Part shown: in pieces, positions 23,287 to 61,083 of the stretch | Position numbering within the stretch: the first letter of the stretch is position 1 | Layout of the letters: every line of letters begins with the position of its first letter | NCBI RefSeq assembly: GCF_001677475.2 | Contig: NZ_CP015229.1 | Reading direction: 5' to 3' (one strand) | DNA: 64,000 nt | DNA from: Escherichia coli | Lineage (GTDB): Bacteria > Pseudomonadota > Gammaproteobacteria > Enterobacterales > Enterobacteriaceae | Position numbers and translations under genes: made by a program | The notes under the pieces: generated by a model | Told to the model about the DNA's origin: nothing | Database searches by the model: none | Seen by the model: only the letters and a program-made list of their open reading frames with translations

Positions 23287-26131
23287 ATTCCCGCGATTTT
23301 CTGACCCTCTCGGCATATACCGTCAGCGTCTGTTTTATCACATCCAGCGTTACCGGCTTCGACAGGCAGCTGTCCATACCGGACTCCAGACACCGCTGCT
23401 TCTCTTCAGCCAACGCATTAGCAGTTACTCCGATTACCGGCAACGTCAGTCCCAACTGACGAATGCGTTGCGTCAAGCGGTAACCATCCATATTTGGCAT
23501 GTTGACGTCGCTAAGCACGATATCAATATTATTCTTGCTAAGTACATTAAGCGCATCGACGCCATCATTCGCGGTTTTACATTGATAGCCCAACGATCCC
23601 AACTGATCTGCCAGAAGACGCCGGTTAATCGGATGATCATCCACGACCAGAATCATCATATCGTCGTTATCGCTGACCGCTTTGTCCGTCGACGGCAGAG
23701 CGTTAGCAGGATCATCGCTCTCCATCTCGATCAAATAAATACGCGCCAACAATGCCGGTAGCTCATGCGGGGCAGCCACACTGTGTACCCACTCCCCTGG
23801 CGCTTTCTCCAGCGGAATACCAATATGGCGACGACAGAAGGTCACTACCGCTCTACCCTGCCATTTTTTACTCACTACCTCGTCAGTAATTAACACATCT
23901 TCGGGAGTCGGTTCCTGCCCTTCGTATGTTGTAACGACGATGCCGCTGCGCTGCAAACTGGTTTCCAGGAACTGACAGAGCGACGCATTGCGGACCGCCA
24001 GCCAGCAGCGTTTACCACTCAACCCTTCCACGCCTTTTTTCTGCGGGTACTGAGCGCCGTACAACGGAATACGCACGGTAAACTGGCTGCCCATTCCCGG
24101 TTCTGAATCTACCGAGATATCGCCGTCCATCATGCTGATCAGTTTTTCACAAATCGCCAGACCCAGACCGGTCCCCTGGAAGTTACGCTGTACGCCCGTT
24201 CCGACCTGGAAGAAGGGATCAAACAAGCGCACCACTTCTTTCGCCGGAATCCCCACGCCGGTATCGCGAACACGGATAGAGAGATAATCGCCATCAGCGC
24301 GAACATGCAAAACTATACAGCCGGTATCGGTGAATTTTATGGCGTTACTCAACAGATTGGAGATGACCTGCTGTAAACGCATCGGGTCGCCATTTAAGGC
24401 CACTGGCACATCCGGTTCAATAAAGCAGTACAAGCCTAGCTGCTTGCGTACCACCAGCGGTAAATAGTTGGCGGTGATGTGGTTCATCACTTCACGCGGT
24501 GAAAACTCACGCGGTTCGATCTTCAACTGTTCCGATTCAATCTTCGAGAAGTCGAGAATATCGCTGATAATTTTCAACAACAGACTGGAAGAGTTGTTCA
24601 TTGCCGTCACAAGACGATCGACGCCTTTCGGTAACTCTTTGGTTTGCAACAGATCCAGGTTACCGATAATGCCATACAGCGGCGTTCGCAGCTCATGACT
24701 GACGGTGGCAAGGAACATCGATTTTGACTGGCTCGCCTGTTCCGCTGCTTGTGCCATCTCCTGCAACGACTCTTCCATCTTCACGCGCGAAGAAACATCC
24801 ACCAGCACACAAATGGCCACGTTTTCATTACGATAGCGCGAATGGACGAAGCTGATTTGCAGATTGGTATTGTTGCTGGTCAGGACATCAACAAAATTGA
24901 CCTGCTGCCCACAGATAATTTGCGTCAGTCGTTGGCGATCCTCATGCGTAAGCATATTGAGATAGGTATGCGCCAGTTCGTTACTTAAAATATTGACGCC
25001 ATCAGCGGTACGTAAAATGCAGATACCTACTGGCGCGGAGGCGACAATCTTGCGATTAAACTGCTCATGTTCTTCCAGTCGCAAGGCGTCGCTTTCCGCC
25101 GGAATGAAAATACGCCGCTCGTACATCCGCGCGAGAGTAAACAATGCAGCTCCGGCAAGCACATTCAGCAAAATTGCGTTAAGGATCAACATGCGAATGC
25201 GTTCCAGCACCTTATCAACCGGCACCGAATAAACGATGCTTAGCGATGAGGGTGGCAGATTTTTCTTCAGCACCAGCTCCCGGAACCCTTCCGTATAGCC
25301 AAACCAGGAGCGTTCCTGCATCCAGCGAGGATCGCCCTTAATTTTACTTTCTGGTCCGGTAAGCGAAATCAGGGTATGACCATTTTCATCCAGAATGGTA
25401 ACCCCCATCGGCAACGTACCCGGTAAGAAAAAGTTCTCCATCCGGATGGTCTGCTCGACACCCAAAAGCGCCTGCAACCGGTTTGCCAGATAAACTGGCG
25501 TCAACGCGTAAAAATACCCGACGCCAGGGCGCGGACCTTCGCTGATCCAGAAGAGGTTACTGCCGCTATCATCTTGTGGTGCATTTCGATATTTATTGAT
25601 GCGTTCATGCAAAGCTTTCAACGCGGTATCGCGTTCCACTGGCATATCACGCAGACCGAAATTGGCCATGCAAAGGTTATCGCTGCCGATTAAAAATACC
25701 CGGTTGAGATCGTAAGCCGCAGAGAAATTATCGCGCCAGTAGCGCATAAACCACGCCAATGACTCCAGAGAGCCTCGCCAGGTGTTACTCATTGCGGAAC
25801 AATCGGAGTCGGCAAACAGCGGTTCAAACGCAGGCACATCCGCCTGCGTTTCTCGTCCACGCGGGGAAAGCACACCGTTTTCTGCCGATAAGCGATTTTC
25901 AGCTATGTACTTCAGCTCTTTCATCACATCAGAGGTACGTTGAATAAAGCGCTGAGCCTGATCGGAACTCAGATTAAATTCCTGACGAATTTCCGATTCT
26001 CGCTGATGTAACGCATTCACGATGTAAAAAACGGATGAAAAAGCAATCAACAGCCAGAGCACTAACGCCAATGCTCTGAACATGTAGCGCGAGGCTTTCA
26101 GGGTTGTACGAAAAGAAGCAAGGTATTTCAA
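23282..26131 (-). CDS. rcsC: hybrid sensor histidine kinase RcsC
   Basis: 949 aa ORF with HisKA H-box (SHELRTPL), ATPase domain and C-terminal receiver domain (VVDDHPINRRL). Confidence 0.95.
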   Translation of the reverse strand: MKYLASFRTTLKASRYMFRALALVLWLLIAFSSVFYIVNALHQRESEIRQEFNLSSDQAQRFIQRTSDVMKELKYIAENRLSAENGVLSPRGRETQADVPAFEPLFADSDCSAMSNTWRGSLESLAWFMRYWRDNFSAAYDLNRVFLIGSDNLCMANFGLRDMPVERDTALKALHERINKYRNAPQDDSGSNLFWISEGPRPGVGYFYALTPVYLANRLQALLGVEQTIRMENFFLPGTLPMGVTILDENGHTLISLTGPESKIKGDPRWMQERSWFGYTEGFRELVLKKNLPPSSLSIVYSVPVDKVLERIRMLILNAILLNVLAGAALFTLARMYERRIFIPAESDALRLEEHEQFNRKIVASAPVGICILRTADGVNILSNELAHTYLNMLTHEDRQRLTQIICGQQVNFVDVLTSNNTNLQISFVHSRYRNENVAICVLVDVSSRVKMEESLQEMAQAAEQASQSKSMFLATVSHELRTPLYGIIGNLDLLQTKELPKGVDRLVTAMNNSSSLLLKIISDILDFSKIESEQLKIEPREFSPREVMNHITANYLPLVVRKQLGLYCFIEPDVPVALNGDPMRLQQVISNLLSNAIKFTDTGCIVLHVRADGDYLSIRVRDTGVGIPAKEVVRLFDPFFQVGTGVQRNFQGTGLGLAICEKLISMMDGDISVDSEPGMGSQFTVRIPLYGAQYPQKKGVEGLSGKRCWLAVRNASLCQFLETSLQRSGIVVTTYEGQEPTPEDVLITDEVVSKKWQGRAVVTFCRRHIGIPLEKAPGEWVHSVAAPHELPALLARIYLIEMESDDPANALPSTDKAVSDNDDMMILVVDDHPINRRLLADQLGSLGYQCKTANDGVDALNVLSKNNIDIVLSDVNMPNMDGYRLTQRIRQLGLTLPVIGVTANALAEEKQRCLESGMDSCLSKPVTLDVIKQTLTVYAERVRKSRES

Positions 26132-26297
26132 AGGGGCGAAGCTCCGCCTCAGGTGACCGATGGAGTGTGGTTAAGGTAGCGGTAAAAGCGTGTTATCGCA
26201 ATGTTCTCTCTTCTCTGGAATATGATACACCGCCGAGAAATCATCACCTTAACCTCTGATAATCGTCATATACCGGACAAGACTAGTGGATTTCAGC

Positions 26298-28124
26298 ATG
26301 CATTATATGAAGTGGATTTATCCACGCCGCTTACGCAATCAAATGATCCTGATGGCAATCCTGATGGTCATTGTCCCAACGCTTACTATTGGTTATATCG
26401 TAGAAACGGAAGGACGTTCAGCAGTCTTATCTGAAAAAGAGAAAAAACTTTCTGCCGTGGTCAACCTGCTTAATCAGGCGCTAGGCAATCGCTACGATCT
26501 CTACATCGACTTACCGCGTGAGGAGCGTATCCGCGCATTAAATGCAGAACTTGCCCCCATTACCGAAAATATCACTCACGCCTTCCCTGGCATCGGCGCT
26601 GGTTATTACAACAAAACGCTGGATGCGATAATCACCTACGCGCCTTCAGCGCTATATCAGAATAATGTGGGCGTTACCATTGCCGCAGATCACCCTGGTC
26701 GCGAAGTCATGCGTACAAATACCCCTTTGGTTTATTCAGGCAGGCAGGTGCGCGGCGATATTTTGAATTCAATGATCCCCATTGAGCGTAATGGTGAAAT
26801 CCTCGGCTATATCTGGGCCAATGAATTAACCGAAGATATTCGCCGCCAGGCCTGGAAAATGGATGTGAGGATTATCATTGTGCTCACCGCCGGTTTGCTG
26901 ATAAGCCTGCTGTTGATTGTCCTTTTCTCCCGTCGCCTGAGCGCCAATATAGATATCATCACCGATGGCCTCTCGACTCTGGCACAAAATATTCCCACTC
27001 GATTACCACAATTGCCCGGTGAAATGGGGCAAATCAGTCAGAGTGTTAACAACCTCGCCCAGGCACTGCGTGAAACGCGGACACTTAACGATCTGATTAT
27101 TGAAAACGCTGCCGATGGCGTCATTGCCATCGACCGCCAGGGTGATGTAACCACCATGAACCCAGCAGCAGAAGTCATCACTGGCTATCAACGTCATGAA
27201 CTGGTAGGGCAGCCTTACTCCATGTTGTTCGACAATACTCAGTTCTATAGTCCAGTACTGGATACGCTGGAACATGGCACCGAACATGTGGCGCTGGAGA
27301 TCAGTTTTCCAGGCCGTGACCGCACCATTGAACTCAGTGTCACTACCAGTCGTATTCATAACACGCACGCTGAAATGATAGGTGCTTTGGTGATTTTCTC
27401 TGATTTAACTGCCCGCAAAGAAACCCAGCGCCGCATGGCGCAAGCAGAACGCCTCGCCACACTGGGTGAGCTGATGGCTGGCGTGGCGCATGAAGTCCGT
27501 AATCCGCTGACGGCTATTCGTGGTTATGTACAGATCTTGCGCCAACAAACCACTGACCCAATACATCAGGAATATCTGTCCGTAGTAATCAAAGAAATCG
27601 ACTCAATTAACAAAGTCATTCAGCAATTGCTCGATTTTTCACGTCCACGCCACAGTCAATGGCAACAAGTCAGCCTCAATGCATTGGTTGAAGAAACTCT
27701 GGTACTGGTACAAACCGCCGGCGTACAAGCGCGGGTCGACTTCATAAGCGAACTGGATAATGAATTAAGCCCGATTAACGCCGATCGTGAACTGCTCAAA
27801 CAGGTACTACTGAATATCCTGATCAATGCCGTCCAGGCTATCAGTGCACGAGGGAAAATTCGCATTCGAACCTGGCAGTACAGCGACTCACAACAGGCCA
27901 TTTCGATAGAGGACACCGGCTGTGGCATTGATCTCTCGCTGCAAAAAAAGATCTTCGATCCCTTTTTCACCACCAAAGCCTCAGGAACCGGGCTTGGTCT
28001 GGCGTTAAGTCAACGCATCATTAATGCCCATCAGGGTGATATTCGCGTCGCCAGTTTGCCGGGCTACGGCGCAACCTTCACGCTTATTTTACCGATCAAC
28101 CCACAGGGAAATCAGACTGTATGA
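26298..28124 (+). CDS. atoS: sensor histidine kinase AtoS
   Basis: Start at MHYMKWIYPRR; TM segments, PAS region, H-box (AHEVRNPLTAI) and G-boxes. Confidence 0.93.
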   Translation: MHYMKWIYPRRLRNQMILMAILMVIVPTLTIGYIVETEGRSAVLSEKEKKLSAVVNLLNQALGNRYDLYIDLPREERIRALNAELAPITENITHAFPGIGAGYYNKTLDAIITYAPSALYQNNVGVTIAADHPGREVMRTNTPLVYSGRQVRGDILNSMIPIERNGEILGYIWANELTEDIRRQAWKMDVRIIIVLTAGLLISLLLIVLFSRRLSANIDIITDGLSTLAQNIPTRLPQLPGEMGQISQSVNNLAQALRETRTLNDLIIENAADGVIAIDRQGDVTTMNPAAEVITGYQRHELVGQPYSMLFDNTQFYSPVLDTLEHGTEHVALEISFPGRDRTIELSVTTSRIHNTHAEMIGALVIFSDLTARKETQRRMAQAERLATLGELMAGVAHEVRNPLTAIRGYVQILRQQTTDPIHQEYLSVVIKEIDSINKVIQQLLDFSRPRHSQWQQVSLNALVEETLVLVQTAGVQARVDFISELDNELSPINADRELLKQVLLNILINAVQAISARGKIRIRTWQYSDSQQAISIEDTGCGIDLSLQKKIFDPFFTTKASGTGLGLALSQRIINAHQGDIRVASLPGYGATFTLILPINPQGNQTV

Positions 28125-29506
28125 CTGCTATTAATCGCATCCTTATTGTGGATGATGAAGATAATGTTCGCCGTATGCTGAGCACCGCTTTTGCACTACA
28201 AGGTTTCGAAACACATTGTGCGAACAACGGACGCACCGCATTACACCTGTTTGCTGATATTCACCCTGACGTGGTGTTGATGGATATCCGCATGCCAGAG
28301 TTGGACGGCATCAAGGCACTAAAGGAGATGCGCAGTCATGAGACCCGGACACCCGTTATTCTGATGACGGCCTATGCTGAAGTGGAAACCGCCGTCGAAG
28401 CACTACGCTGCGGAGCCTTCGACTATGTTATCAAACCGTTTGATCTCGATGAGTTGAATTTAATCGTTCAGCGCGCTTTACAACTCCAGTCAATGAAAAA
28501 AGAGATCCGTCATCTGCACCAGGCACTGAGCACCAGCTGGCAATGGGGGCACATTCTCACCAACAGCCCGGCGATGATGGACATCTGCAAAGACACCGCC
28601 AAAATTGCCCTTTCTCAGGCCAGCGTCTTGATTAGCGGTGAAAGCGGCACCGGGAAAGAGTTGATTGCCAGAGCGATTCACTACAATTCGCGGCGGGCAA
28701 AGGGGCCGTTCATTAAAGTCAACTGCGCGGCGCTGCCGGAATCGTTGCTCGAAAGTGAACTGTTTGGTCATGAAAAAGGTGCATTTACTGGTGCACAAAC
28801 CTTGCGTCAGGGATTATTTGAACGTGCCAACGAAGGTACTCTGCTCCTCGACGAAATTGGCGAAATGCCGCTGGTACTGCAAGCCAAATTACTACGCATT
28901 CTGCAGGAACGGGAATTTGAACGGATTGGCGGCCATCAGACCATAAAAGTTGATATCCGCATCATTGCTGCCACCAACCGTGACTTGCAGGCAATGGTAA
29001 AAGAAGGCACCTTCCGTGAAGATCTCTTTTATCGCCTTAACGTTATTCATTTAATACTGCCGCCTCTGCGCGATCGCCGGGAAGATATTTCCCTGTTAGC
29101 TAATCACTTTTTGCAAAAATTCAGTAGTGAGAATCAGCGCGATATTATCGACATCGATCCGATGGCAATGTCACTGCTTACCGCCTGGTCATGGCCGGGA
29201 AATATTCGAGAGCTTTCCAACGTCATTGAACGCGCCGTCGTAATGAACTCAGGTCCGATCATTTTTTCTGAGGATCTTCCGCCACAGATTCGTCAGCCAG
29301 TCTGTAATGCTGGTGAGGCAAAAACAGCCCCTGTCGGTGAGCGTAATTTAAAAGAGGAAATTAAACGCGTCGAAAAACGCATCATTATGGAAGTGCTGGA
29401 ACAACAGGACGGAAACCGAACCCGCACCGCTTTGATGCTGGGCATCAGTCGCCGTGCATTGATGTATAAACTCCAGGAATACGGTATCGATCCGGCGGAT
29501 GTATAA
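28121..29506 (+). CDS. atoC: sigma-54-dependent response regulator AtoC
   Basis: Receiver domain, AAA+ sigma54-interaction domain (GESGTGKE, GAFTGA) and C-terminal HTH; 4 nt overlap with atoS. Confidence 0.95.
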   Translation: MTAINRILIVDDEDNVRRMLSTAFALQGFETHCANNGRTALHLFADIHPDVVLMDIRMPELDGIKALKEMRSHETRTPVILMTAYAEVETAVEALRCGAFDYVIKPFDLDELNLIVQRALQLQSMKKEIRHLHQALSTSWQWGHILTNSPAMMDICKDTAKIALSQASVLISGESGTGKELIARAIHYNSRRAKGPFIKVNCAALPESLLESELFGHEKGAFTGAQTLRQGLFERANEGTLLLDEIGEMPLVLQAKLLRILQEREFERIGGHQTIKVDIRIIAATNRDLQAMVKEGTFREDLFYRLNVIHLILPPLRDRREDISLLANHFLQKFSSENQRDIIDIDPMAMSLLTAWSWPGNIRELSNVIERAVVMNSGPIIFSEDLPPQIRQPVCNAGEAKTAPVGERNLKEEIKRVEKRIIMEVLEQQDGNRTRTALMLGISRRALMYKLQEYGIDPADV

Positions 29507-29517
29507 CACCAAAACTT

Positions 29518-29558
29518 GCTATGCAGAAATTTGCACAGTGCGCAATTTTCTGCATAGC
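29518..29558. promoter_or_regulatory. AtoC binding palindrome (two roughly 20 bp inverted repeats)
   Basis: gctatgcagaaatttgcaca / gtgcgcaattttctgcatagc near-perfect inverted repeat upstream of atoD. Confidence 0.8.
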
Positions 29559-29639
29559 CAATCATCCTCCTTCTTAATCCACACCTTATTTATTCTTTTA
29601 TATTCAATCAGTTAAAAACAACATCAAATATTCTCATTC

Positions 29640-29655
29640 TGGCACTCCCCTTGCT
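29640..29655 (+). promoter_or_regulatory. sigma-54 (-24/-12) promoter of atoDAEB
   Basis: TGGCAC-tcccc-TTGCT matches TGGCAC-N5-TTGCW, about 45 nt upstream of atoD start. Confidence 0.8.
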
Positions 29656-29700
29656 ATTCCCTGACTGTACCCACAACGGTGTATGCAAGAGGGATAAATA

Positions 29701-30363
29701 ATGAAAACAAAATTGATGACATTACAAGACGCCTCCGGCTTCTTTCGTGACGGCATGACCATCATGGTGGGCGGATTTATGGGGATTGGCACTCCATCCC
29801 GCCTGGTTGAAGCATTACTGGAATCTGGTGTTCGCGACCTGACATTGATAGCCAATGATACCGCGTTTGTTGATACCGGCATCGGCCCGCTCATCGTCAA
29901 TGGTCGAGTCCGCAAAGTAATTGCGTCACATATCGGCACCAACCCGGAAACAGGTCGGCGCATGATATCTGGTGAGATGGACGTCGTTCTGGTGCCGCAA
30001 GGTACGCTAATCGAGCAAATTCGCTGTGGTGGAGCTGGACTTGGTGGTTTTCTCACCCCAACCGGTGTCGGCACCGTCGTAGAGGAAGGCAAACAGACGC
30101 TGACACTCGACGGCAAAACCTGGCTGCTTGAACGCCCACTGCGCGCCGACCTGGCGCTCATTCGCGCTCATCGTTGCGACACACTTGGCAACCTGACCTA
30201 TCAACTTAGCGCCCGCAACTTTAACCCCCTGATTGCCCTTGCGGCTGATATCACGCTGGTGGAGCCAGATGAACTGGTCGAAGTCGGCGAGCTGCAACCT
30301 GACCATATTGTCACCCCTGGTGCCGTTATCGACCACATCATCGTTTCACAGGAGAGCAAATAA
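29701..30363 (+). CDS. atoD: acetate CoA-transferase alpha subunit
   Basis: 220 aa ORF; CoA-transferase family; operon order. Confidence 0.93.
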
Positions 30364-31013
30364 TGGATGCGAAACAACGTATTGCACGCCGTGTGGCACA
30401 AGAGCTTCGTGATGGTGACATCGTGAATCTGGGCATTGGTCTGCCGACGATGGTCGCCAACTATTTGCCAGAAGGCATTCATATCACTCTGCAATCGGAA
30501 AACGGCTTCCTCGGTTTAGGCCCGGTCACGACAGCGCATCCAGATCTGGTTAACGCAGGCGGACAACCATGCGGCGTTTTACCCGGCGCAGCCATGTTTG
30601 ACAGCGCCATGTCATTTGCGCTGATCCGTGGCGGTCATATTGATGCCTGCGTGCTCGGTGGTTTGCAGGTAGACGAAGAAGCCAACCTCGCGAACTGGGT
30701 AGTGCCTGGAAAAATGGTGCCCGGTATGGGTGGCGCGATGGATCTGGTGACCGGGGCGCGCAAAGTGATCATTGCCATGGAACATTGCGCCAAAGATGGT
30801 TCACCGAAAATTTTGCGCCGCTGCACCATGCCGCTCACTGCGCAACACGCGGTGCATATGCTGGTCACTGAACTGGCTGTCTTTCGTTTCATTGACGGCA
30901 AAATGTGGCTCACCGAAATTGCCGACGGGTGTGATTTAGCCACCGTGCGTGCCAAAACCGAAGCTCAGTTTGAAGTAGCCGCCGATCTGAATACGCAACG
31001 GGGTGATTTATGA
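30363..31013 (+). CDS. atoA: acetate CoA-transferase beta subunit
   Basis: 216 aa ORF abutting atoD. Confidence 0.93.
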   Translation: MDAKQRIARRVAQELRDGDIVNLGIGLPTMVANYLPEGIHITLQSENGFLGLGPVTTAHPDLVNAGGQPCGVLPGAAMFDSAMSFALIRGGHIDACVLGGLQVDEEANLANWVVPGKMVPGMGGAMDLVTGARKVIIAMEHCAKDGSPKILRRCTMPLTAQHAVHMLVTELAVFRFIDGKMWLTEIADGCDLATVRAKTEAQFEVAADLNTQRGDL

Positions 31014-32332
31014 TTGGTCGCATCTCGCGTTTTATGACGCGCTTTGTCAGCCGGTGGCTTCCCGATCCTCTGATCTTTGCCATGTTGCTGACGTTGCTAA
31101 CGTTCGTGATCGCGCTTTGGTTAACACCACAAACGCCGATCAGCATGGTGAAAATGTGGGGTGACGGTTTCTGGAACTTGCTGGCGTTCGGTATGCAGAT
31201 GGCGCTGATCATCGTTACCGGTCATGCCCTTGCCAGCTCTGCTCCGGTGAAAAGCTTGCTGCGGACTGCCGCCTCCGCCGCAAAGACGCCCGTACAGGGC
31301 GTCATGCTGGTCACTTTCTTCGGTTCAGTCGCTTGTGTCATCAACTGGGGATTTGGTCTAGTTGTCGGCGCAATGTTCGCCCGTGAAGTCGCCCGGCGAG
31401 TACCTGGCTCTGATTATCCGTTGCTCATTGCCTGCGCCTACATTGGTTTTCTCACCTGGGGTGGCGGCTTCTCTGGCTCAATGCCTCTGTTGGCTGCAAC
31501 ACCGGGCAACCCGGTTGAGCATATCGCCGGGCTTATCCCGGTGGGCGATACTCTGTTCAGTGGTTTTAACATTTTCATCACTGTGGCATTGATTGTGGTG
31601 ATGCCATTTATCACCCGCATGATGATGCCAAAACCGTCTGACGTGGTGAGTATCGATCCGAAACTACTCATGGAAGAGGCTGATTTTCAGAAGCAGCTAC
31701 CGAAAGATGCTCCACCGTCCGAGCGACTGGAAGAAAGCCGCATTCTGACGTTGATCATCGGCGCACTCGGTATCGCTTACCTGGCAATGTACTTCAGCGA
31801 ACATGGCTTCAACATCACCATCAATACCGTCAACCTGATGTTTATGATTGCGGGTCTGCTGCTACATAAAACGCCAATGGCTTATATGCGAGCTATCAGC
31901 GCGGCAGCACGCAGTACCGCCGGTATTCTGGTGCAATTCCCCTTCTACGCCGGGATCCAACTGATGATGGAGCACTCCGGTCTGGGCGGACTCATTACCG
32001 AATTCTTTATCAATGTTGCGAACAAAGACACCTTCCCGGTAATGACCTTCTTTAGTTCTGCACTGATTAACTTCGCCGTTCCGTCTGGTGGCGGTCACTG
32101 GGTTATTCAGGGACCTTTCGTGATACCCGCAGCCCAGGCGCTGGGCGCTGATCTCGGTAAATCGGTAATGGCGATCGCCTACGGCGAGCAATGGATGAAC
32201 ATGGCACAACCGTTCTGGGCGCTGCCAGCACTGGCAATCGCCGGGCTCGGTGTCCGCGACATCATGGGCTATTGCATCACTGCCCTGCTCTTCTCTGGCG
32301 TCATTTTCGTCATTGGTTTAACGCTGTTCTGA
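31010..32332 (+). CDS. atoE: short-chain fatty acid transporter
   Basis: 440 aa polytopic membrane ORF. Confidence 0.92.
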   Translation: MIGRISRFMTRFVSRWLPDPLIFAMLLTLLTFVIALWLTPQTPISMVKMWGDGFWNLLAFGMQMALIIVTGHALASSAPVKSLLRTAASAAKTPVQGVMLVTFFGSVACVINWGFGLVVGAMFAREVARRVPGSDYPLLIACAYIGFLTWGGGFSGSMPLLAATPGNPVEHIAGLIPVGDTLFSGFNIFITVALIVVMPFITRMMMPKPSDVVSIDPKLLMEEADFQKQLPKDAPPSERLEESRILTLIIGALGIAYLAMYFSEHGFNITINTVNLMFMIAGLLLHKTPMAYMRAISAAARSTAGILVQFPFYAGIQLMMEHSGLGGLITEFFINVANKDTFPVMTFFSSALINFAVPSGGGHWVIQGPFVIPAAQALGADLGKSVMAIAYGEQWMNMAQPFWALPALAIAGLGVRDIMGYCITALLFSGVIFVIGLTLF

Positions 32333-32362
32333 CGGCAACTCTACAGACAGAAGGAATATAAA

Positions 32363-33547
32363 ATGAAAAATTGTGTCATCGTCAGTGCGGTACGTACTGC
32401 CATCGGTAGTTTTAATGGTTCACTCGCCTCCACCAGCGCCATCGATCTGGGGGCAACAGTAATTCAGGCCGCCATTGAACGCGCAAAACTCGATTCACAA
32501 CACGTCGATGAAGTGATTATGGGTAACGTATTGCAGGCCGGGCTGGGGCAAAATCCGGCTCGTCAGGCACTGCTAAAAAGCGGACTGGCAGAAACGGTGT
32601 GCGGATTTACGGTCAACAAAGTATGTGGTTCTGGTCTGAAAAGCGTGGCGCTTGCCGCCCAGGCAATTCAGGCCGGTCAGGCACAGAGCATCGTAGCGGG
32701 TGGAATGGAGAACATGAGTTTAGCGCCCTATTTACTCGATGCAAAAGCACGCTCTGGTTATCGTCTTGGAGACGGACAGGTTTATGACGTGATCCTGCGC
32801 GATGGCCTGATGTGCGCCACTCACGGTTATCATATGGGTATTACCGCCGAGAACGTTGCCAAAGAGTACGGAATTACCCGTGAAATGCAGGATGAACTGG
32901 CGCTACATTCACAGCGTAAAGCGGCAGCAGCCATTGAGTCCGGTGCTTTTACCGTCGAAATTGTCCCGGTAAATGTTGTCACACGGAAGAAAAACATCGT
33001 CTTCGATCGCGATGAATTCCCGAAAGTAGATTCTACTGCAGAAGCTCTTGCTGCATTGCGCCCGGCCTTCGACAAAGCCGGAACGGTCACCGCCGGGAAC
33101 GCGTCTGGCATTAACGATGGGGCTGCCGCACTGGTGATTATGGAAGAATCTGCGGCGCTGGCGGCAGGCCTAAAACCACTGGCACGCATTAAAAGCTATG
33201 CCAGCGGTGGCGTGCTCCCTGCATTGATGGGTATGGGGCCAGTACCTGCCACGCAAAAAGCGTTACAACTGGCGGGGCTGCAACTGGCAGACATTGATCT
33301 CATCGAAGCCAATGAAGCATTTGCCGCGCAGTTCCTTGCCGTTGGGAAAACCCTGGGCTTTGATCCTGAGAAAGTGAATGTCAACGGCGGAGCCATCGCG
33401 CTGGGGCATCCTATCGGCGCCAGCGGTGCACGTATTCTGGTCACACTATTACATGCAATGCAGGCTCGCGATAAAACGCTGGGTCTGGCGACGCTGTGCA
33501 TTGGCGGCGGTCAGGGAATTGCGATGGTGATTGAACGATTGAATTAA
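32363..33547 (+). CDS. atoB: acetyl-CoA acetyltransferase (thiolase II)
   Basis: 394 aa thiolase with active-site Cys in [10 protein letters not shown] and C-terminal CIGGGQG. Confidence 0.95.
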
Positions 33548-33557
33548 CCAACAAAAA

Positions 33558-33590
33558 CGCCCGATAGCGAAAGTCATCGGGCGTTTTCTT
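33558..33590 (+). terminator. rho-independent terminator after atoB
   Basis: Stem cgcccgat / atcgggcg with loop, followed by ttttctt. Confidence 0.8.
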
Positions 33591-33620
33591 AAACATCGAC
33601 AGTGAAAGTAACCTCATTAA

Positions 33621-34157
33621 TTACCAGTCAAAACTTTTCACCAGCGTCAGCTCGCCAGCATTACGCATCGGTACAATAAATGTTTCCTGTTTCTCATTGA
33701 CCGATCCTTCATCGGTGATCAGCGTCAGTTGGGCAGTGGTTAATTCCGTTTCGCTGCGTCCGCCATAGTAGTTGATATACACCTGATAGCGCCCGTGAAC
33801 TGGCGCTGGCATGGCGAAAATCTCGGGGCCGTACCCCGTCGTGACATCCATATCCAGTGCGCCACTGTTTTTCAGCACCGTGTTACCGTACCAGGCGTGT
33901 TCGCCATCAGGCGTGACAACATGGAGATCGAGATCGGTATTGTCCGTATCCCACGAGAGAACCAGCCGTAAACGTGCACGAATCGTTCCTGTACCCGGCG
34001 TTGAGTAAAACTGCATTTTTTGTCGGCTTTGCCCATCCGGGCTGATGACCTGCACGCTGTTGCTGCCTTCAATGCCCTGACGCCAGCGGAAAGTAGGGCT
34101 ATTGCACCAAAACCTACAAGGCCATAAAACCGCCAGCCTTTCGCCTTTTTTAACCAC
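33621..34157 (-). pseudogene. probable 5'-truncated remnant of yfaP (DUF2135-family); rest of the yfaA-yfaP locus absent
   Basis: 178 aa ORF whose stop abuts the atoB terminator in the orientation expected for yfaP; no signal peptide or credible start context; the 675 bp space between the atoB and gyrA terminators is too short for a full-length gene of this family. Confidence 0.45.
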
Positions 34158-34266
34158 TCATTGCCACATTCCTTGTGTAAAGCCAGCCATTTTTTATGGG
34201 CGATGCACAACTTTATCGCGTCCTAATACGACAAAAGCCCAGACTTTGCAGCCTGGACTTTTCAAT

Positions 34267-34290
34267 TCAAAAAAGGGAGATGGCTCCCTT
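34267..34290 (-). terminator. rho-independent terminator of gyrA
   Basis: Hairpin gggagccatctccc followed by U6 on minus strand, about 20 nt past the gyrA stop. Confidence 0.8.
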
Positions 34291-34309
34291 TTGACATGAA
34301 TAAATAAAA

Positions 34310-36937
34310 TTATTCTTCTTCTGGCTCGTCGTCAACGTCCACTTCCGGAGCGATTTCATCGTCCCCTTCCGCAGCACTGCCGTCGATGGTATCCAGATCT
34401 TCCTCGTCAACCGGTTCAGCAACACGTTGCAGACCCACTACGTTTTCATCTTCCGCAGTACGGATGAGGATCACGCCCTGGGTGTTACGGCCCACGATGC
34501 TGATTTCTGAAACGCGAGTACGTACCAGCGTACCGGCATCGGTGATCATCATGATCTGGTCGCAATCATCTACCTGCACCGCGCCAACCACTAAACCGTT
34601 ACGTTCGGTGACCTTGATGGAGATAACCCCTTTCGTCGCACGTGACTTGGTTGGGTATTCCGCCACTGCGGTACGTTTACCATAACCGTTCTGCGTTGCG
34701 GTGAGGATTGCGCCATCGCCACGAGGCACGATCAGAGAGACGACTTTATCGCCTTCGCCTAAGCGAATACCGCGCACACCTGTGGTATTGCAGCCCATCG
34801 CACGGACAGAAGACTCTTTAAAGCGCACCACTTTACCTTCGGCGGAGAACAGCATTACTTCGTCTTCGCCACTGGTCAGGTCAACGCCGATCAGCTCATC
34901 GCCTTCAACCAGCTTGATCGCCACTTTACCGGCGGTACGCAGACGGTTGAATTCGGTGAGGACGGTTTTCTTCACAGTACCGTTAGCCGTCGCCATGAAG
35001 ACTTTCACGCCTTCTTCAAACTCGGTCACTGGCAGGATCGCGGTGATACGTTCGTCCTGCTCCAGGGGCAGCAGGTTGACGATCGGACGACCACGTGCAC
35101 CACGAGAGGCTTCCGGCAACTGATAGACTTTCATCGAATAGACACGGCCACGGCTGGAGAAGCACAGGATATGGTCGTGGGTGTTCGCCACCAGCAGTCG
35201 GTCGATAAAGTCTTCTTCTTTAATACGTGCGGCAGATTTACCTTTCCCGCCACGACGCTGCGCTTCGTATTCCGAAAGCGGCTGGTACTTCACGTAGCCC
35301 TGGTGAGAGAGCGTCACGACCACATCTTCCTGAGTGATCAGATCTTCCAGGTTGATGTCTGCGCTGTTGGCAGTGATTTCAGTACGACGTTTGTCGCCGA
35401 ACTGTTCACGAACCAGTTCCAGCTCTTCGCGGATCACTTCCATCAGACGATCGGCGCTACCCAGAATACGCAGCAGTTCCGCGATCTGATCCAGCAGCTC
35501 TTTGTATTCATCGAGCAGTTTTTCGTGCTCAAGGCCGGTCAGTTTCTGCAAACGCAGATCCAGAATTGCCTGAGCTTGCTGTTCGGTCAGGTAGTACAGA
35601 CCGTCACGCACGCCGAACTCTGGCTCCAGCCATTCCGGACGCGCAGCATCGTCACCCGCACGCTCCAGCATCGCGGCAACGTTGCCCAGCTGCCACGGAT
35701 TAGCAACCAGCGCGGTTTTCGCTTCTGCAGGCGTCGGCGCATGACGGATCAGTTCAATGATCGGGTCGATGTTCGCCAGTGCTACGGCTAATGCTTCAAG
35801 GATATGAGCACGATCGCGGGCTTTACGCAGTTCGAAAATGGTACGACGGGTCACCACTTCGCGACGGTGACGGACAAACGCAGCGATAATGTCTTTCAGG
35901 TTCATGATCTTCGGCTGACCATGGTGCAATGCCACCATGTTGATACCGAAAGAAACCTGCAACTGGGTCTGGGAGTAGAGGTTGTTGAGCACCACTTCAC
36001 CGACCGCATCGCGTTTAACTTCAATCACGATGCGCATACCGTCTTTGTCAGACTCGTCACGCAGCGCGCTGATGCCTTCCACGCGTTTTTCTTTTACCAG
36101 TTCCGCAATCTTCTCGATCAGGCGCGCTTTGTTCACCTGATACGGAATTTCGTGGACGATAATGGTTTCACGCCCGGTTTTGGCGTCAACCTCCACTTCA
36201 GCACGGGCGCGGATATATACCTTGCCGCGACCGGTACGGTAAGCTTCTTCAATACCGCGACGACCGTTAATGATTGCCGCCGTCGGGAAGTCCGGCCCCG
36301 GGATGTGTTCCATCAGCCCTTCAATGCTGATGTCTTCATCATCGATATACGCCAGACAACCGTTGATGACTTCCGTCAGGTTGTGCGGCGGGATGTTGGT
36401 TGCCATACCTACGGCGATACCGGAAGAACCGTTCACCAGCAGGTTAGGAATTTTGGTTGGCATGACGTCGGGAATTTTTTCCGTGCCGTCATAGTTATCA
36501 ACGAAATCGACCGTCTCTTTTTCGAGATCGGCCATCAGTTCATGGGCAATTTTCGCCAGACGGATTTCCGTATAACGCATTGCCGCCGCAGAGTCGCCGT
36601 CGATGGAACCGAAGTTACCCTGACCGTCTACCAGCATGTAACGCAGCGAGAATGGCTGCGCCATACGGACGATCGTGTCATAAACCGCCGAGTCACCATG
36701 GGGATGGTATTTACCGATTACGTCACCAACGACACGGGCAGATTTTTTATAGGCTTTGTTCCAGTCATTGCCTAGTACGTTCATGGCGTAAAGTACGCGA
36801 CGGTGTACCGGCTTCAGGCCATCTCGGACATCTGGCAGCGCACGGCCAACAATGACCGACATCGCATAATCCAGATAGGAGCTCTTCAGCTCTTCCTCAA
36901 TGTTGACCGGTGTAATTTCTCTCGCAAGGTCGCTCAT
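34310..36937 (-). CDS. gyrA: DNA gyrase subunit A
   Basis: 875 aa ORF with [48 protein letters not shown]-terminus, QRDR region ([10 protein letters not shown]) and acidic C-terminal tail. Confidence 0.97.
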
Positions 36938-37083
36938 CTAACCGCTATCCCTCTACTGTATCCCGGATTCAAAGGTCGCAAATTATAACACAGCCGCGCA
37001 GATTGAGGTAAACCTATACGCTTTATTCACATCCAATGCCTGATATACTCGTTTGTCTTGCCAATTACGGAGTAGAAGTGCCA

Positions 37084-37806
37084 ATGAATGCCGAAAAATC
37101 GCCGGTAAACCATAACGTAGACCACGAAGAGATCGCTAAATTTGAAGCCGTCGCCTCCCGCTGGTGGGATCTTGAAGGTGAGTTCAAACCGCTGCACCGC
37201 ATTAACCCGCTGCGTCTGGGCTATATTGCCGAGCGTGCTGGCGGTTTATTTGGCAAAAAGGTGCTCGATGTCGGTTGTGGCGGCGGCATTCTGGCCGAGA
37301 GTATGGCGCGCGAAGGCGCGACGGTGACCGGTCTGGATATGGGCTTTGAGCCATTGCAGGTGGCGAAACTGCACGCACTGGAAAGCGGCATTCAGGTAGA
37401 TTACGTGCAGGAAACCGTGGAAGAGCACGCGGTAAAACATGCCGGGCAATATGATGTGGTGACCTGCATGGAGATGCTGGAGCACGTCCCCGATCCGCAG
37501 TCAGTGGTCAGAGCCTGTGCACAACTGGTGAAACCGGGCGGCGATGTCTTTTTCTCGACGCTTAACCGCAACGGCAAGTCATGGCTGATGGCGGTGGTTG
37601 GTGCGGAATATATTTTGCGCATGGTGCCTAAAGGCACGCATGATGTGAAGAAGTTTATTAAACCGGCAGAGCTGCTTGGCTGGGTAGATCAGACAAGCCT
37701 TAAAGAGCGACATATAACCGGGCTACATTACAACCCGATCACTAATTCCTTTAAGCTTGGCCCCGGCGTGGATGTGAACTATATGCTGCACACGCAGAAT
37801 AAATAA
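37084..37806 (+). CDS. ubiG: ubiquinone biosynthesis O-methyltransferase UbiG
   Basis: Start at [16 protein letters not shown]-binding motif LDVGCGGG. Confidence 0.93.
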
Positions 37807-37812
37807 AATTGT

Positions 37813-37862
37813 TTGCCGGATAAGGTGCTCGCACCACATCCGGCTACAATGCCGGACGCAAA
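37813..37862. repeat. REP palindromic element between ubiG and yfaL
   Basis: gccggataaggtgctcgcaccacatccggc palindrome. Confidence 0.7.
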
Positions 37863-37866
37863 GCAG

Positions 37867-47645: not shown

Positions 47646-48716
47646 ATGCCAAATACATCTATTCAATTATCTCGCTGTAATATTTTACAAAATAATAAAT
47701 TGCAAACAGCAGAAATTTACAAAGAATCACAACAAACCGCGAAACTTGAGATTTTTTGCAATGAGTTTCTAAAAATATCTCAAAGTAGATTCGGGTTATC
47801 AACCTCAGCAGACAACATAGCTAATTTATTGGCTTTTTTCACGAAAGCCTCAGATGAAATTGATAGTATCAAAACCCAAAAAATTGACGTTCACAGTTAT
47901 GGTTTCGTACCAATAAGACATTTTGTCGAGCATGTCATAACGTATAAAAATGAATTTGCAGAAGATTATGAACCCTATACCCTTACCTTTACCCGAGGTG
48001 AAAACAACGAAGGTGTTTTGAGTATCGAAAGCAAAGAAGGGTTTCTTTCAGAAAGAACAATAAATTTAAATGAATATGAAACTGCAATTAACATCATCAA
48101 TGAGCATGTTGCAAAAGAAAATATCAATAACAAGATCCAAACATTGACAGACAAAGACACACCAAAAATAACCAACTCTGACAAAATTTATAAATTTATC
48201 CACGAGTTAAATATAAGAACTCAACTTTACAGCAAGCAAAAAGAATATACAGACCTGCTACTACATTCTGAGAAAAATACAGAATGGTACAAATACACAT
48301 CCTCCGAGGAACGCTATGATGTATTTAAGAATTCTTCTAAAAAAATTGAAAATACCTACAAGCAAATTGTGCAAGCGCAGAAAAAATTGAAGCAAATGAA
48401 ATACATCAATAAATTAAGTGGTGAGCTTATCGATATCGCCGACAAAAAGTTAGCACCATTAATAAATGATAGTTTCAGCTATACACGAGATTTCTTTGCT
48501 TACTCAAAAAATGAAAAAAATATCTTCACATTTGATAATTCTAAGTTTTTAGATCCAAAGGAAAAAGAAGGTTTAATGATACAACACAGCAATGGGCAAC
48601 TGGTTATTACTGGTAAATATTGCCCTGAAGGTATGCAAACAGCATTCACCCAAGAACAATATGATAAATTAATAAGATACATTAATATTTTCTTTACTTT
48701 CCAGAAATGCGAATAA
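47646..48716 (+). CDS. uncharacterised soluble protein (about 356 aa) on an AT-rich single-gene islet; no recognisable domain
   Basis: Uninterrupted 1.1 kb reading frame in about 30% GC DNA, where random frames are stop-rich; AAGGA Shine-Dalgarno 7 nt before ATG at 47646 (the track ORF begins at an upstream TTG at 47610); K/E/N-rich, no signal peptide or TM segment. Confidence 0.7.
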   Translation: MPNTSIQLSRCNILQNNKLQTAEIYKESQQTAKLEIFCNEFLKISQSRFGLSTSADNIANLLAFFTKASDEIDSIKTQKIDVHSYGFVPIRHFVEHVITYKNEFAEDYEPYTLTFTRGENNEGVLSIESKEGFLSERTINLNEYETAINIINEHVAKENINNKIQTLTDKDTPKITNSDKIYKFIHELNIRTQLYSKQKEYTDLLLHSEKNTEWYKYTSSEERYDVFKNSSKKIENTYKQIVQAQKKLKQMKYINKLSGELIDIADKKLAPLINDSFSYTRDFFAYSKNEKNIFTFDNSKFLDPKEKEGLMIQHSNGQLVITGKYCPEGMQTAFTQEQYDKLIRYINIFFTFQKCE

Positions 48717-48903
48717 TACTGTACATTATAAACTGCATTACAATTTATTATTGAGCCCTATTCATACTGTTTAAAGAATAACAATACCCAGTGTTAGCTT
48801 TCCTAACAAATGAGTTTTACGCAAATATGTTGGCATCTTTTTTAACAGGATGCTCAGGTGAATGAATAGAATAACCGGTAGTAGCATTATTTCGCTTTAG
48901 CTG

Positions 48904-48927
48904 AGGATGGCGCATGAACGCCATCCT
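48904..48927 (-). terminator. stem-loop immediately downstream of glpQ
   Basis: Stem aggatggcg / cgccatcct with 6 nt loop, 10 nt past the glpQ stop; no clear U-tract. Confidence 0.45.
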
Positions 48928-48936
48928 GCAGTAGCA

Positions 48937-50013
48937 TTACTCTTTATTAAGGAATTTTACTGCCTTATCAGGGAAATCAGTAAACAGCCCATTTACACCC
49001 GCTTTGTCATACAGAACATCATATAACTGATTCACATCAGTAGTGTATTCAGGCAGTTTATCTGACCGCACGGTATAAGGATGCACTACCAGTTTATTCT
49101 GCTGAGCATCTTGCACCATGCCAGTGAGTTTGATATTACCCGGCTGCGATGTCTCCTCAATCAACATATGGTAATCCGGGCCAATACCATCTGCATATTC
49201 CGCCACCTGTTTCATGGCACCCGGCTTAAACATCCAGTCGTAGTTGTAATTAACCCAGCTTCCGTCCGGCTGTTTCTGCTGCGTTTCATTCCAGTCGGTA
49301 TAGGCAATCAGCTGTACCAGATTGAGATCCATGCCCATTTTAGGTTCCAGCTCATTCTTAATACGCTTCAGCTCATCAGCATCAAAACATTGTAAATAAA
49401 CTTTGTCGTCCTTACCGGTGTAACCATATTTCTTCAGCACTTCCAGCGTTTTTGCCGCAATATCCTTCCCTTCCTGATGATGGAACCACGGTGCTTTAAT
49501 TTCTGGATAGATACCGATATTTTTCCCGGTAGAGTGATTTAACCCCTGAACAAATTCAATCTCTTCTTCAAAGGTGTGCACCCGGAAGTCGGACTTACCC
49601 ATTGGGAAACGCCCCGGATAAGTCTGCACTTTTTTACCGTTTTCAATATCGAAACCTTCGGTAAATTTCAGCGACTTAATTTCATCCAGCGTGAAATCTA
49701 TCGCGTAGTAACGACCGTCTTTGCGCGCCCGATCCGGGAAACGATCGGCAACATCAGTAACACGATCGAGGTAATGGTCATGCAGAACAACCAGATGGTC
49801 GTCTTTGGTCATCACCAAATCCTGTTCCAGATAATCCGCTCCCTGCGCATACGCCATCGCTTTTGCTGGCAGCGTATGCTCCGGCAAATATCCACTGGCA
49901 CCGCGATGGGCGATGACTATTTTTTCGTTGCTGTCCGCCGCCATTGCACTGCTTCCCATGACTATAGTGCTCATCATGATCGCCATGCTAAGGTTTTTCA
50001 GCGTCAATTTCAT
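48937..50013 (-). CDS. glpQ: periplasmic glycerophosphodiester phosphodiesterase
   Basis: Start at MKLTLKNLSMAIMMSTIVMGSSAMA signal peptide, followed by HRGASGYLPEHT active-site region; track N-terminal extension rejected. Confidence 0.95.
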   Translation of the reverse strand: MKLTLKNLSMAIMMSTIVMGSSAMAADSNEKIVIAHRGASGYLPEHTLPAKAMAYAQGADYLEQDLVMTKDDHLVVLHDHYLDRVTDVADRFPDRARKDGRYYAIDFTLDEIKSLKFTEGFDIENGKKVQTYPGRFPMGKSDFRVHTFEEEIEFVQGLNHSTGKNIGIYPEIKAPWFHHQEGKDIAAKTLEVLKKYGYTGKDDKVYLQCFDADELKRIKNELEPKMGMDLNLVQLIAYTDWNETQQKQPDGSWVNYNYDWMFKPGAMKQVAEYADGIGPDYHMLIEETSQPGNIKLTGMVQDAQQNKLVVHPYTVRSDKLPEYTTDVNQLYDVLYDKAGVNGLFTDFPDKAVKFLNKE

Positions 50014-50017
50014 GCCA

Positions 50018-51376
50018 TTAGCCTCCGTTGCGTTTTTGCAGTAATTCCTGATGGCGACGTTTTTCACCAATCATCACAACAATCAACAAGATAACCGCCA
50101 GAATGCTGCCGCCAATCATTACCATAAAGCCGCCATCCCAGCCGAAGAAGTCCACGGTGTAGCCAACAATCGCGCTCGCCGCCACCGAACCGCCCAGGTA
50201 ACCAAACAGACCGGTAAAGCCCGCTGCCGTACCTGCCGCTTTTTTCGGTGCCAGTTCCAGCGCATGCAGACCGATCAGCATCACAGGACCGTAGATCAGG
50301 AAGCCGATAACAATCATACAAATCATATCGACGGTTGGGTTACCTGCCGGGTTCATCCAGTAAACGATAGTCGCGATGGTCACCAGTGTCATAAAGAAGA
50401 CGCCGGTTGCCCCACGGTTACCGCGGAAGACTTTATCCGACATCCAGCCGCACAGCAGAGTGCCCGGAATACCTGCATATTCATAAAGGAAGTAGGCCCA
50501 TGAGGATTTATCCAGCGCGAAGTGCTTAACCTCTTTCAGATAAGTCGGTGACCAGTCGAGGATGCCGTAACGCAGCAGATAAACGAACACGTTGGCGATG
50601 GCGATATACCACAGCAGTTTGTTCGGCAGCACGTACTGCATGAAGATTTGCTTCGCAGTCAGCTCCTGTTCCGCTTTTTCGTTATAGTCGTCTGGATAAT
50701 CATTTTTGTACTCTTCGATCGGCGGCAGGCCACAGGATTGCGGGGTATCGCGCATCATCGCAAAGGCGAATAATGCCACCAGAATGGCGCAGAAAGCGGG
50801 CATATAGAGCGCCGCGTGCCAGTCATTGAACCAGGCCATCCCCAGCAGGAACAGCAGCGGCGGAATACCACCACCGACGTTGTGCGCACAGTTCCACACT
50901 GACACAATGCCGCCACGTTCTTTCTGCGACCACCAGTGCACCATAGTACGACCACACGGCGGCCACCCCATCCCCTGGAACCAACCGCAGAGGAACAGAA
51001 GTACAAACATCACCGCAATGCTCGACGTCGCCCATGGCACAAAGCCCATAAACAACATCACTGCCGCCGCCAGAATCAAACCTGCGGGCAGGAAAACGCG
51101 CGGATTCGAGCGATCCGATACCGAACCCATGATGAATTTCGAAAATCCATAAGCAATCGAGATCCCCGAAAGGGCAAAACCTAAATCACCGCGTGAGAAT
51201 CCCTGCTCAACCAAATAAGGAATAGCGAGCGCAAAGTTCTTACGAACCAAATAGTAAGCAGCATAACCAAAGAATATCCCCAGGAAAATTTGCCAGCGCA
51301 ATCGACGATAAGTCGGATCGATCTCCGCGGCAGGTAAGCGCGCTTTGTGTGGCGCTGGTTTAAAAATACTCAACAT
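50018..51376 (-). CDS. glpT: glycerol-3-phosphate:phosphate antiporter (MFS)
   Basis: 452 aa 12-TM ORF starting [31 protein letters not shown]. Confidence 0.96.
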
Positions 51377-51648
51377 TGATAGCCTCCGTGGCCCGTGATC
51401 TTATTTATGATTAACAGCCTGATTCAGTGGGAGAACCTGCCGTTTCTTGAGTTGCCGCGATGTTAAGAAAACATTCATAAATTAAATGTGAATTACCGCA
51501 CACATTATTAAATACGATGGTGAAAATGTTCAGAATGACGCATGAAATCACGTTTCACTTTCGAATTATGAGCGAATATGCGCGAAATCAAACAATTCAT
51601 GTTTTTACTATGGCTAAATGGTAAAAAACGAACTTCAGAGGGATAACA
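51377..51648. promoter_or_regulatory. divergent glpTQ / glpABC control region (GlpR operators, CRP)
   Basis: Intergenic spacer with repeated aatgttcag / tgcgcgaa operator-like motifs; established glp regulon architecture. Confidence 0.6.
51486..51501. promoter_or_regulatory. candidate CRP site
   Basis: TGTGA-attacc-GCACA, one mismatch to TGTGA-N6-TCACA. Confidence 0.55.
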
Positions 51649-55713
<4,065 letters not shown>

Positions 55714-55720
55714 TCTTCAC

Positions 55721-55746
55721 TGGCAGGACGTGAAAACCTCCTGCCA
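55721..55746 (+). terminator. stem-loop after glpC
   Basis: tggcagga / tcctgcca stem 8 nt after the glpC stop; weak T-tract. Confidence 0.4.
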
Positions 55747-56085
55747 TTCATATCCACGCTGAATATTTCAGAATAACTGCTCTCTATTTTTTTACTTAAC
55801 TTCACATTTCCATGTATTGACACTCGCTATCTAAAAGTAGCTTTATTATGTCCCTTCAGAAACTAATTGATATAAATAATAATATTCACCACCACATTAC
55901 CTAAAAGAATAATAATATACGATTATTAAAAATTAAACATATTCACCAGCATTATATGTTTAGAATTACTTTGATAGTTCCCGCAAAAAAAATGTTTATA
56001 AATATTTATTTGCGTATATAATCCCGTCTGTTTAATATATTAAAAACATAATATTATTCCATTCATCAATATAAAAGGAACTTAA

Positions 56086-56676
56086 GTGAAAGCAAAAATT
56101 CTCATTCCATCGTTATCTGTTCTCTTGATGGGTATATCGGCTTTAAGTTATGCGGACACTCCTGCCGGTAAAGTTCATTTCAATGGGCTAATTACTGCAT
56201 CAACTTGTGACTTAGAGCAAGGTACAGGCAAGGGACAGAATGACCAGACCGTAACGCTTCAGACAGTGGACGTTGCTGATTTTGGCGCTGCTGTAGGTAA
56301 TGAAGCAGCAAACTCTGCAACAGATTTTAATATTAATCTTACCGGTTGTACGACACAATTAGGTAGCATCAACCTTGAATTTAGCGGTAATACCACCGAT
56401 GCCACCGATAATACAGCCCTGGCAATTGACACCGGTGCAGATAAAGCAACAGGCGTAGGGATTCGTATTTATCGTGAAGGTGCTTCTTCACCGATTAATT
56501 TTGCTACTGATCGTACCGATGCAGAAAGCTCTGCGGTAACACTTTCATCCATTAGCCCAACCAATGGTGATGGCAAGCATAGCTTTAATTATAAAGCGGT
56601 TTATGTCAGAACAGCAGATACAATTACTGAAGGTCAGGGTAACGCGACTGCGGATTATCGTATCGCTTACTATTAA
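56086..56676 (+). CDS. fimbrial major subunit (chaperone-usher pilin)
   Basis: 196 aa; GTG start with AAAAGGA Shine-Dalgarno; signal peptide; Cys pair typical of type 1-like pilins; C-terminal donor-strand-like YRIAYY. Confidence 0.8.
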   Translation: MKAKILIPSLSVLLMGISALSYADTPAGKVHFNGLITASTCDLEQGTGKGQNDQTVTLQTVDVADFGAAVGNEAANSATDFNINLTGCTTQLGSINLEFSGNTTDATDNTALAIDTGADKATGVGIRIYREGASSPINFATDRTDAESSAVTLSSISPTNGDGKHSFNYKAVYVRTADTITEGQGNATADYRIAYY

Positions 56677-56733
56677 TGATATATTTCAAAGGGGTGAAAT
56701 TACTACACCCCTTAATTACTAAAGTAAAAATGC

Positions 56734-57438: not shown

Positions 57439-57499
57439 GCGCAATAGATTGTTCAGGAAAACGACAGGAATTATCTCGTACAAGGAAAGTAATAATAAC

Positions 57500-59986: not shown

Positions 59987-59990
59987 CATC

Positions 59991-61037: not shown

Positions 61038-61061
61038 TGAACAGCAATAAACCCGCGAACA

Positions 61062-61083
61062 GGTGCCGGAAGCATCCGGCACC
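61062..61083. terminator. stem-loop between fimbrial adhesin gene and yfaY (convergent)
   Basis: ggtgccgga-agca-tccggcacc hairpin; no U-tract on either strand. Confidence 0.4.

Follow-up and report, generated by a model that had tools for sequence, protein, structure and literature searches.

Remnants of yfaP and yfaA between atoB and gyrA, very probably the scar of a single deletion, in a divergent Escherichia coli lineage

In Escherichia coli K-12, five yfa genes lie between atoB and gyrA. In the window analyzed here, a stretch of 64,000 nucleotides from contig NZ_CP015229.1 (assembly GCF_001677475.2, labelled E. coli), the same interval holds little besides one short open reading frame (ORF) without an obvious beginning. 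The initial annotation, made from the sequence alone, read this ORF either as the 3′ end of yfaP left behind by a deletion or as an unrelated fragment in a site that had never been occupied. We asked which of these states the locus represents and whether the ORF might still be a gene. On the evidence below, we are highly confident that the interval is the scar of one 8,736-bp deletion and that the 178-codon ORF is an accidental frame, most likely a nonfunctional pseudogene.

The interval between atoB and gyrA

The left border of the interval is atoB (positions 32363 to 33547, plus strand), an intact 394-aa ORF for acetyl-CoA acetyltransferase that is collinear with K-12 atoB, and the right border is gyrA (34310 to 36937, minus strand), an intact 875-aa ORF with 97.1% nucleotide identity to K-12 gyrA. 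According to the ORF list and the raw sequence, the two stop codons are separated by 762 bp (33548 to 34309), in agreement with the ~760 bp first estimated, and the largest ORF between them is the 178-aa minus-strand frame singled out at that stage (33621 to 34157, GTG start). A 112-aa ORF in another frame (33872 to 34210, minus strand) and a few shorter ORFs are also listed. The gene order given for K-12 in the initial annotation was correct: strain BW25113 reads atoB > yfaP < yfaQ < yfaS < yfaT < yfaA < gyrA over an interval of ~9.5 kb, with all five yfa genes on the strand opposite atoB. In this strain yfaS is an alpha-2-macroglobulin (A2M) family pseudogene with an internal stop, while yfaT and yfaA encode DUF1175 and DUF2138 proteins, respectively.

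The noncoding sequence at both edges of the interval is retained. Within the atoB/yfaP spacer, a hairpin at 33554 to 33587 folds on the plus strand with −20.7 kcal/mol (z = −6.2), and RNA folding of the minus strand gives an identical stem followed by UUUUU; this hairpin can terminate transcription in both directions, from atoB and from yfaP. A simple terminator scan did not pick it up, probably because its loop exceeds the 8-nt limit of the scan. An Rfam scan of 33300 to 34600 returned a single subthreshold match, to STnc310, on the same hairpin (24.5 bits against a gathering score of 40), which we set aside as a terminator look-alike. On the other side, the gyrA-yfaA spacer (34162 to 34309, minus strand) matches K-12 collinearly, shows conservation in four further Escherichia, and includes the gyrA terminator hairpin at ~34261 to 34300 (−15.2 kcal/mol, z = −3.8). 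The promoter of the yfaA operon presumably lies in this retained spacer. A promoter and terminator consensus scan found no sigma-70 match and one chance-level hairpin inside the yfaP remnant; the absence of a sigma-70 consensus match proves nothing about expression.

The deletion junction and the sequences that it joins

We aligned the window with the K-12 atoB-gyrA interval, a comparison that the initial annotation had proposed, and found 8,736 bp missing between two collinear blastn blocks that overlap by 5 nt at 34070 to 34074. The first block (33300 to 34074) runs from the 3′ end of atoB through the atoB-yfaP spacer into yfaP, of which it covers the final ~450 nt; the second (34070 to 34600) starts with the opening ~90 nt of yfaA and continues across the yfaA-gyrA spacer into the 3′ end of gyrA. 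In K-12 numbering, the missing segment begins near yfaA codon 31 and reaches yfaP codon 109. It comprises 326 of the 777 nt of yfaP (the first 42%), all of yfaQ, yfaS, and yfaT, including the whole 4,515-nt yfaS region, and 1,598 of the 1,689 nt of yfaA (95%). Relatives have the longer locus intact, and here its two ends are joined directly.

A three-way comparison with K-12 and a five-taxon alignment place the junction at 34070 to 34071, a CA dinucleotide common to the yfaP and yfaA breakpoints. The sequence across the join reads CCTTCA and then ATGCCC, and the shared bases extend to TTnCA (4 of 5) if one mismatch is allowed. Neither an insertion sequence (IS) element nor a long repeat was found at the join, and we therefore infer a microhomology-mediated illegitimate deletion. 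A single illegitimate recombination would have joined nucleotide ~90 of yfaA to the end of yfaP codon 109 at this 2-bp microhomology. What the break left would be 90 nt of yfaA as a stub plus the final 149 yfaP codons, set between the original gyrA-side spacer and the atoB/yfaP terminator and joined out of frame with the yfaA ATG. One A would have been lost later, and a TAA at codon 4 would have been gained in the sub-lineage of the window. Any transcription of the remnants would come at most from gyrA read-through or the promoter of the former operon, with transcripts ending at the retained terminator.

The yfaP-derived part (33621 to 34071, minus strand) consists of the last base of codon 109, codons 110 to 258, and the stop. 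Its product is identical to residues 110 to 258 of K-12 YfaP at 148 of 149 positions (the single change is I200V), and its nucleotide identity to E. coli yfaP is 95 to 98%, reaching 97.7% over 525 bp among yfaP alleles, a likeness that goes far beyond chance. An hmmscan search matched ORF residues 119 to 164 to the complete model of Pfam PF09906 (DUF2135, YfaP_C; E = 3e−17, model positions 1 to 48 of 48), and PF09906:YfaP_C also appears in the precomputed annotation of identical products. No NCBIfam family was matched at E ≤ 0.001, a result of little weight given that the library may hold no YfaP model. Together with the two blastn blocks, the amino acid identity and the Pfam match confirm the initial reading of the ORF as the 3′ part of yfaP that survived a deletion.

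The impression that the ORF has no credible N terminus or signal peptide also held: the N terminus and signal peptide of K-12 YfaP, MRKIFLPLLLVALSPVAHSEG, have no counterpart in it. The YfaP start codon, signal peptide, and residues 1 to 109 are all missing, and the product is not a full-length YfaP of ~258 aa. Instead, the 178-aa ORF (33621 to 34157, minus strand) is a chimera in which codons 1 to 28 are out-of-frame yfaA sequence, codon 29 spans the junction, and codons 30 to 178 correspond to YfaP 110 to 258. Its N terminus is not credible because codons 1 to 28 are the yfaA stub read in the wrong frame. The ORF is thus a yfaP fragment plus a yfaA stub, and not the complete, conserved, and unrelated gene that would have spoken against a remnant. 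Gene callers nevertheless give the 178-aa product for it, and in the NCBI-deposited annotation it appears as a 150-aa "DUF2135 domain-containing protein [Escherichia coli]" that starts at an ATT at the junction. Relative to K-12 yfaP (b2225), the fragment shares the last 149 codons by orthology, the position beside atoB, and the same terminator, but it lacks the first 109 codons and is joined out of frame to the yfaA stub.

The yfaA stub occupies 90 nt (34072 to 34161, minus strand) and still begins with the yfaA ATG (34161 to 34159). In an alignment with K-12, E. whittamii, Escherichia sp. MOD1-EC7003, and E. albertii, it carries two lesions that are absent from all four: codon 4 is changed from GAA to TAA (34152 to 34150), and an A-run at 34151 to 34146 has 6 A, against 7 in K-12 and E. 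whittamii (in E. albertii and MOD1-EC7003 there is a G within the run). AAGGAA, once the ribosome-binding site of yfaA, is retained at 34174 to 34169. Reading upstream from yfaP, the frame crosses the junction into the stub in a non-native frame and continues to a GTG at 34157, which lies 4 nt past the old yfaA ATG and 11 nt from AAGGAA. Since the 1-nt loss puts this GTG in frame with the yfaP part, translation of the chimera is conceivable. The 112-aa ORF runs in the third frame, where it encodes the native N-terminal hydrophobic segment of YfaA, KKAKGWRFYGLVGFGAIALLSAGV, and then passes out of frame into yfaP; its sole start is a TTG upstream of the former yfaA start codon, and this frame most likely has no meaning.

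Distribution of the junction and the ancestral state of the site

Public collections contain many further carriers. In a public collection, 44 blocks have contigs with a gene call for exactly the 178-aa product, 43 more have the 150-aa NCBI-deposited form, and a single assembly has one variant form. We aligned 12 loci, taken from dozens that encode the same remnant, with the window as the 13th carrier. The junction is identical base for base in all 12, which are draft assemblies or sequencing-run contigs and include GCA_018683295.1, GCA_040939905.1, GCA_012400105.1, GCA_016118665.1, GCA_018428365.1, GCA_027552025.1, and GCA_013369235.2; the public carriers are labelled E. coli. The 8.7-kb deletion is present in 13 of 13 carriers, the 1-nt loss in 12 (all except L030), and the TAA in 5 (the window, L002, L003, L008, and L027), and a plausible interpretation of this nested pattern would be that deletion, 1-nt loss, and TAA arose in that order as successive steps of decay. 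The deletion itself probably had a single origin. Still, these carriers do not form a clone: between the window and L026 or L030, gyrA diverges by ~2% and ubiG (37084 to 37806) by 5.6%. The contrast between ubiG, at 94.4% identity, and adjoining gyrA, at 98%, points to mosaic ancestry or recombination around the scar. A literature search, including one under the carrier assemblies, found nothing relevant to a yfaA-yfaP deletion.

Full-length yfaP was found in E. whittamii, E. albertii, and Escherichia sp. MOD1-EC7003 in a YfaP scan of one genome per species, and in all three the distance from yfaP to the yfaA start and gyrA is ~8.7 kb. Among 5,426 complete E. coli genomes, 5,398 matched the interval, with the yfaP part leading, while the junction occurs in none of them and no record covers ≥80% of the query. 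Because the full operon occupies the site in sister species and in nearly all E. coli, the short state is derived and the long form is ancestral in the genus. An exact scan of the GTDB species-representative genomes with the 26-nt junction gave no match, from which it follows that the lineage is not a species representative. The match to E. coli E69 in the YfaP scan is uninformative on the junction, since the matched stretch begins ~30 nt from the junction site. Truncated or frameshifted YfaP calls of other kinds are also found in E. coli.

A different short form of the site exists in 27 of the 5,426 complete E. coli genomes, e.g., strain 19KM1831 (NZ_CP151026.1, locus L032, 7853 to 8000). In this strain 111 bp separate atoB from gyrA, the site contains 137 bp of unrelated DNA with no trace of yfaP or yfaA, and GyrA has 878 aa with a different acidic tail. 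The operon as a whole has been lost from the site both there and in the window, but only the window keeps yfaP and yfaA remnants. From these sequence differences, the clean allele is an independent loss or replacement that is unrelated to the deletion in the window, and with the long and scarred forms it makes at least three states of the site in Escherichia.

The existence of such a clean short allele is what would favor the alternative raised in the initial annotation, namely, that the short interval is an ancestral, never-occupied state in which the fragment is unrelated or was separately acquired. That reading fails here and is left with a negligible probability: the window has both operon termini in the right order and orientation, together with spacer and terminator, the full operon is at the site in E. 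albertii, E. whittamii, MOD1-EC7003, and >99% of E. coli, and the clean allele differs from the window in sequence and in its gyrA tail. Equally hard to credit is an artefact of assembly or sequencing, such as a collapsed contig. We considered it solely on account of the lack of the junction in complete E. coli genomes and found no point in its favor; it is ruled out because the exact junction recurs in 12 independently produced assemblies or runs, which differ from one another at other sites.

The window as a whole is divergent from E. coli with complete genomes. Its best identity to any of the 5,426 is 98.0% over 1 to 24000, 97.0% over 24000 to 33547 and 34310 to 44000, and 96.4% over 44000 to 64000, and E. 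albertii, E. whittamii, and MOD1-EC7003 are less similar to it than E. coli is. Given these best identities of 96.4 to 98.0%, the lineage is nearest to E. coli and falls outside the phylogroups represented by complete genomes; we take it to be possibly cryptic-clade-I-like. A Shigella origin was rejected on the same values. No complete E. coli genome covers ≥80% of 44000 to 64000, and ~5.4 kb between glpC and yfaY (55707 to 61094) is missing from the best-matching E. coli. This segment contains a four-gene chaperone-usher fimbrial operon with a subunit (56086 to 56676), a chaperone (56734 to 57438), an usher (57449 to 59986), and a 357-aa tip-like subunit (59964 to 61037); the genes are Lpf/Fim-like, yet under every NCBIfam cutoff. 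Downstream of inaA (46933 to 46945), ~1.9 kb is absent in comparison with E. coli PE164, comprising an MFS-transporter gene and most of the adjoining LysR-regulator gene. Alleles of the ato operon (atoD-atoB, 29650 to 33547) are strongly dimorphic, the atoB of the window being 91.6% identical to that of K-12 and 98.9% identical to that of E. coli E69. For many E. coli genomes, the match to the query starts only at yfaP.

Function of the remnant and loss of the operon

By homology and literature, yfaA-yfaT-yfaS-yfaQ-yfaP would be the Escherichia counterpart of magABCDEF, the type II A2M envelope-defence operon of Pseudomonas. Matching the two gene by gene from domain names, we tentatively take yfaS to be magD-like and yfaA (DUF2138) to be MagB-like. 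The window has this operon's chromosomal site, the ends of its two outermost genes, and the spacers on either side, whereas yfaS/magD, yfaQ, yfaT, and nearly all of yfaA are missing: the A2M gene is absent, 90 nt of yfaA remain, and yfaT and yfaQ are deleted. With the A2M gene and its partners gone, a type II A2M system cannot exist at the atoB-gyrA site here. In Pseudomonas aeruginosa, MagD is a thioester-less type II A2M that MagB anchors at the inner membrane; two paralogues, MagA and MagF, bind MagD 1:1, all are periplasmic, and the partners of MagD are unstable and degraded without it (PMC3735191, PMC5764988). The Pseudomonas system acts as a protease trap and as a defence against type VI effectors that target peptidoglycan (PMC5764988, PMC12663445). 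By analogy, a YfaP fragment with neither a signal peptide nor an A2M partner would have no obvious way to work in a Mag-type system.

Could the chimeric ORF nevertheless be a live gene? Such a gene would encode a cytoplasmic protein of 28 novel residues plus DUF2135, expressed from the yfaA ribosome-binding site via the GTG at 34157, with a role unrelated to the A2M complex. The frame is open over 178 codons in 12 of 13 carriers and over the yfaP codons in all 13; the 1-nt loss brought the GTG, 11 nt from AAGGAA, into frame; gene callers and the NCBI-deposited annotation both report a product; and polymorphism among carriers is mostly synonymous. Structure prediction bears on both sides. An AlphaFold model of full-length YfaP, built from a 16-sequence alignment, has low confidence (mean pLDDT of 63.7), and no sequence homologue of YfaP was found in the PDB; the model is too weak for a fold search and was used solely as a hint at domain boundaries. 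It suggests that the remnant keeps the whole beta-rich C-terminal part (residues ~140 to 258), but the breakpoint appears to cut a predicted N-terminal beta-sandwich, of which strands up to residue 105 are lost and those at 111 to 133 are kept. Further points weigh against a live gene. YfaP is secreted and the ORF has no signal peptide; all partners, including the A2M gene, are deleted; in Pseudomonas, the homologues MagA and MagF function solely in the periplasm as partners of MagD (PMC3735191, PMC5764988); and L030 does not have the frame-restoring 1-nt loss. The 28 additional open codons in the right frame have a chance expectation of ~9% and are unremarkable, and with divergence no higher than ~3%, chance alone would be expected to leave the yfaP codons open.

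The synonymous excess has an explanation other than constraint. The yfaP-derived part differs at 16 sites among the 13 carriers, 12 synonymous and 4 nonsynonymous. Almost all of these variants are alleles of intact yfaP in K-12, E69, E. whittamii, MOD1-EC7003, or E. albertii, and they occur in blocks that run on into flanking variation, a pattern that reads as the signature of homologous recombination importing already-purified variation. We therefore rejected the 12:4 count as evidence for purifying selection. The only two carrier-private substitutions in the remnant, absent from the intact alleles compared, are T53M and M103I in L026, and both are nonsynonymous. The 1-nt loss, the TAA, and these two changes would fit decay, in a small sample whose polymorphism was mostly imported by recombination; the remnant gives no evidence for constraint, and the data are too thin to prove neutrality. 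Altogether, we regard a live chimeric gene as very improbable and favor a nonfunctional deletion remnant.

As a gene loss, the scar in the window is ordinary and lineage-specific, and it has become fixed in a lineage that is E. coli-like but divergent. Elsewhere, too, this dispensable operon is already in decay, as seen in K-12 yfaS, in the 27 empty alleles, and in truncated YfaP calls; the K-12 yfaS pseudogene and the window show decay of the same operon, by a point lesion in an otherwise complete operon in the former and by an 8.7-kb deletion in the latter. For biology at large the finding matters little: this lineage, which differs by at least 2 to 3% from every complete E. coli genome, has lost the type II A2M operon at the atoB-gyrA site. 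Its practical uses are that the junction offers a clean, PCR-testable marker for the lineage and that calls of a 150- or 178-aa "DUF2135 domain-containing protein" at this site should be read as pseudogene fragments. More broadly, the atoB-gyrA site is a small example of the recurrent loss of an accessory envelope-defence operon.
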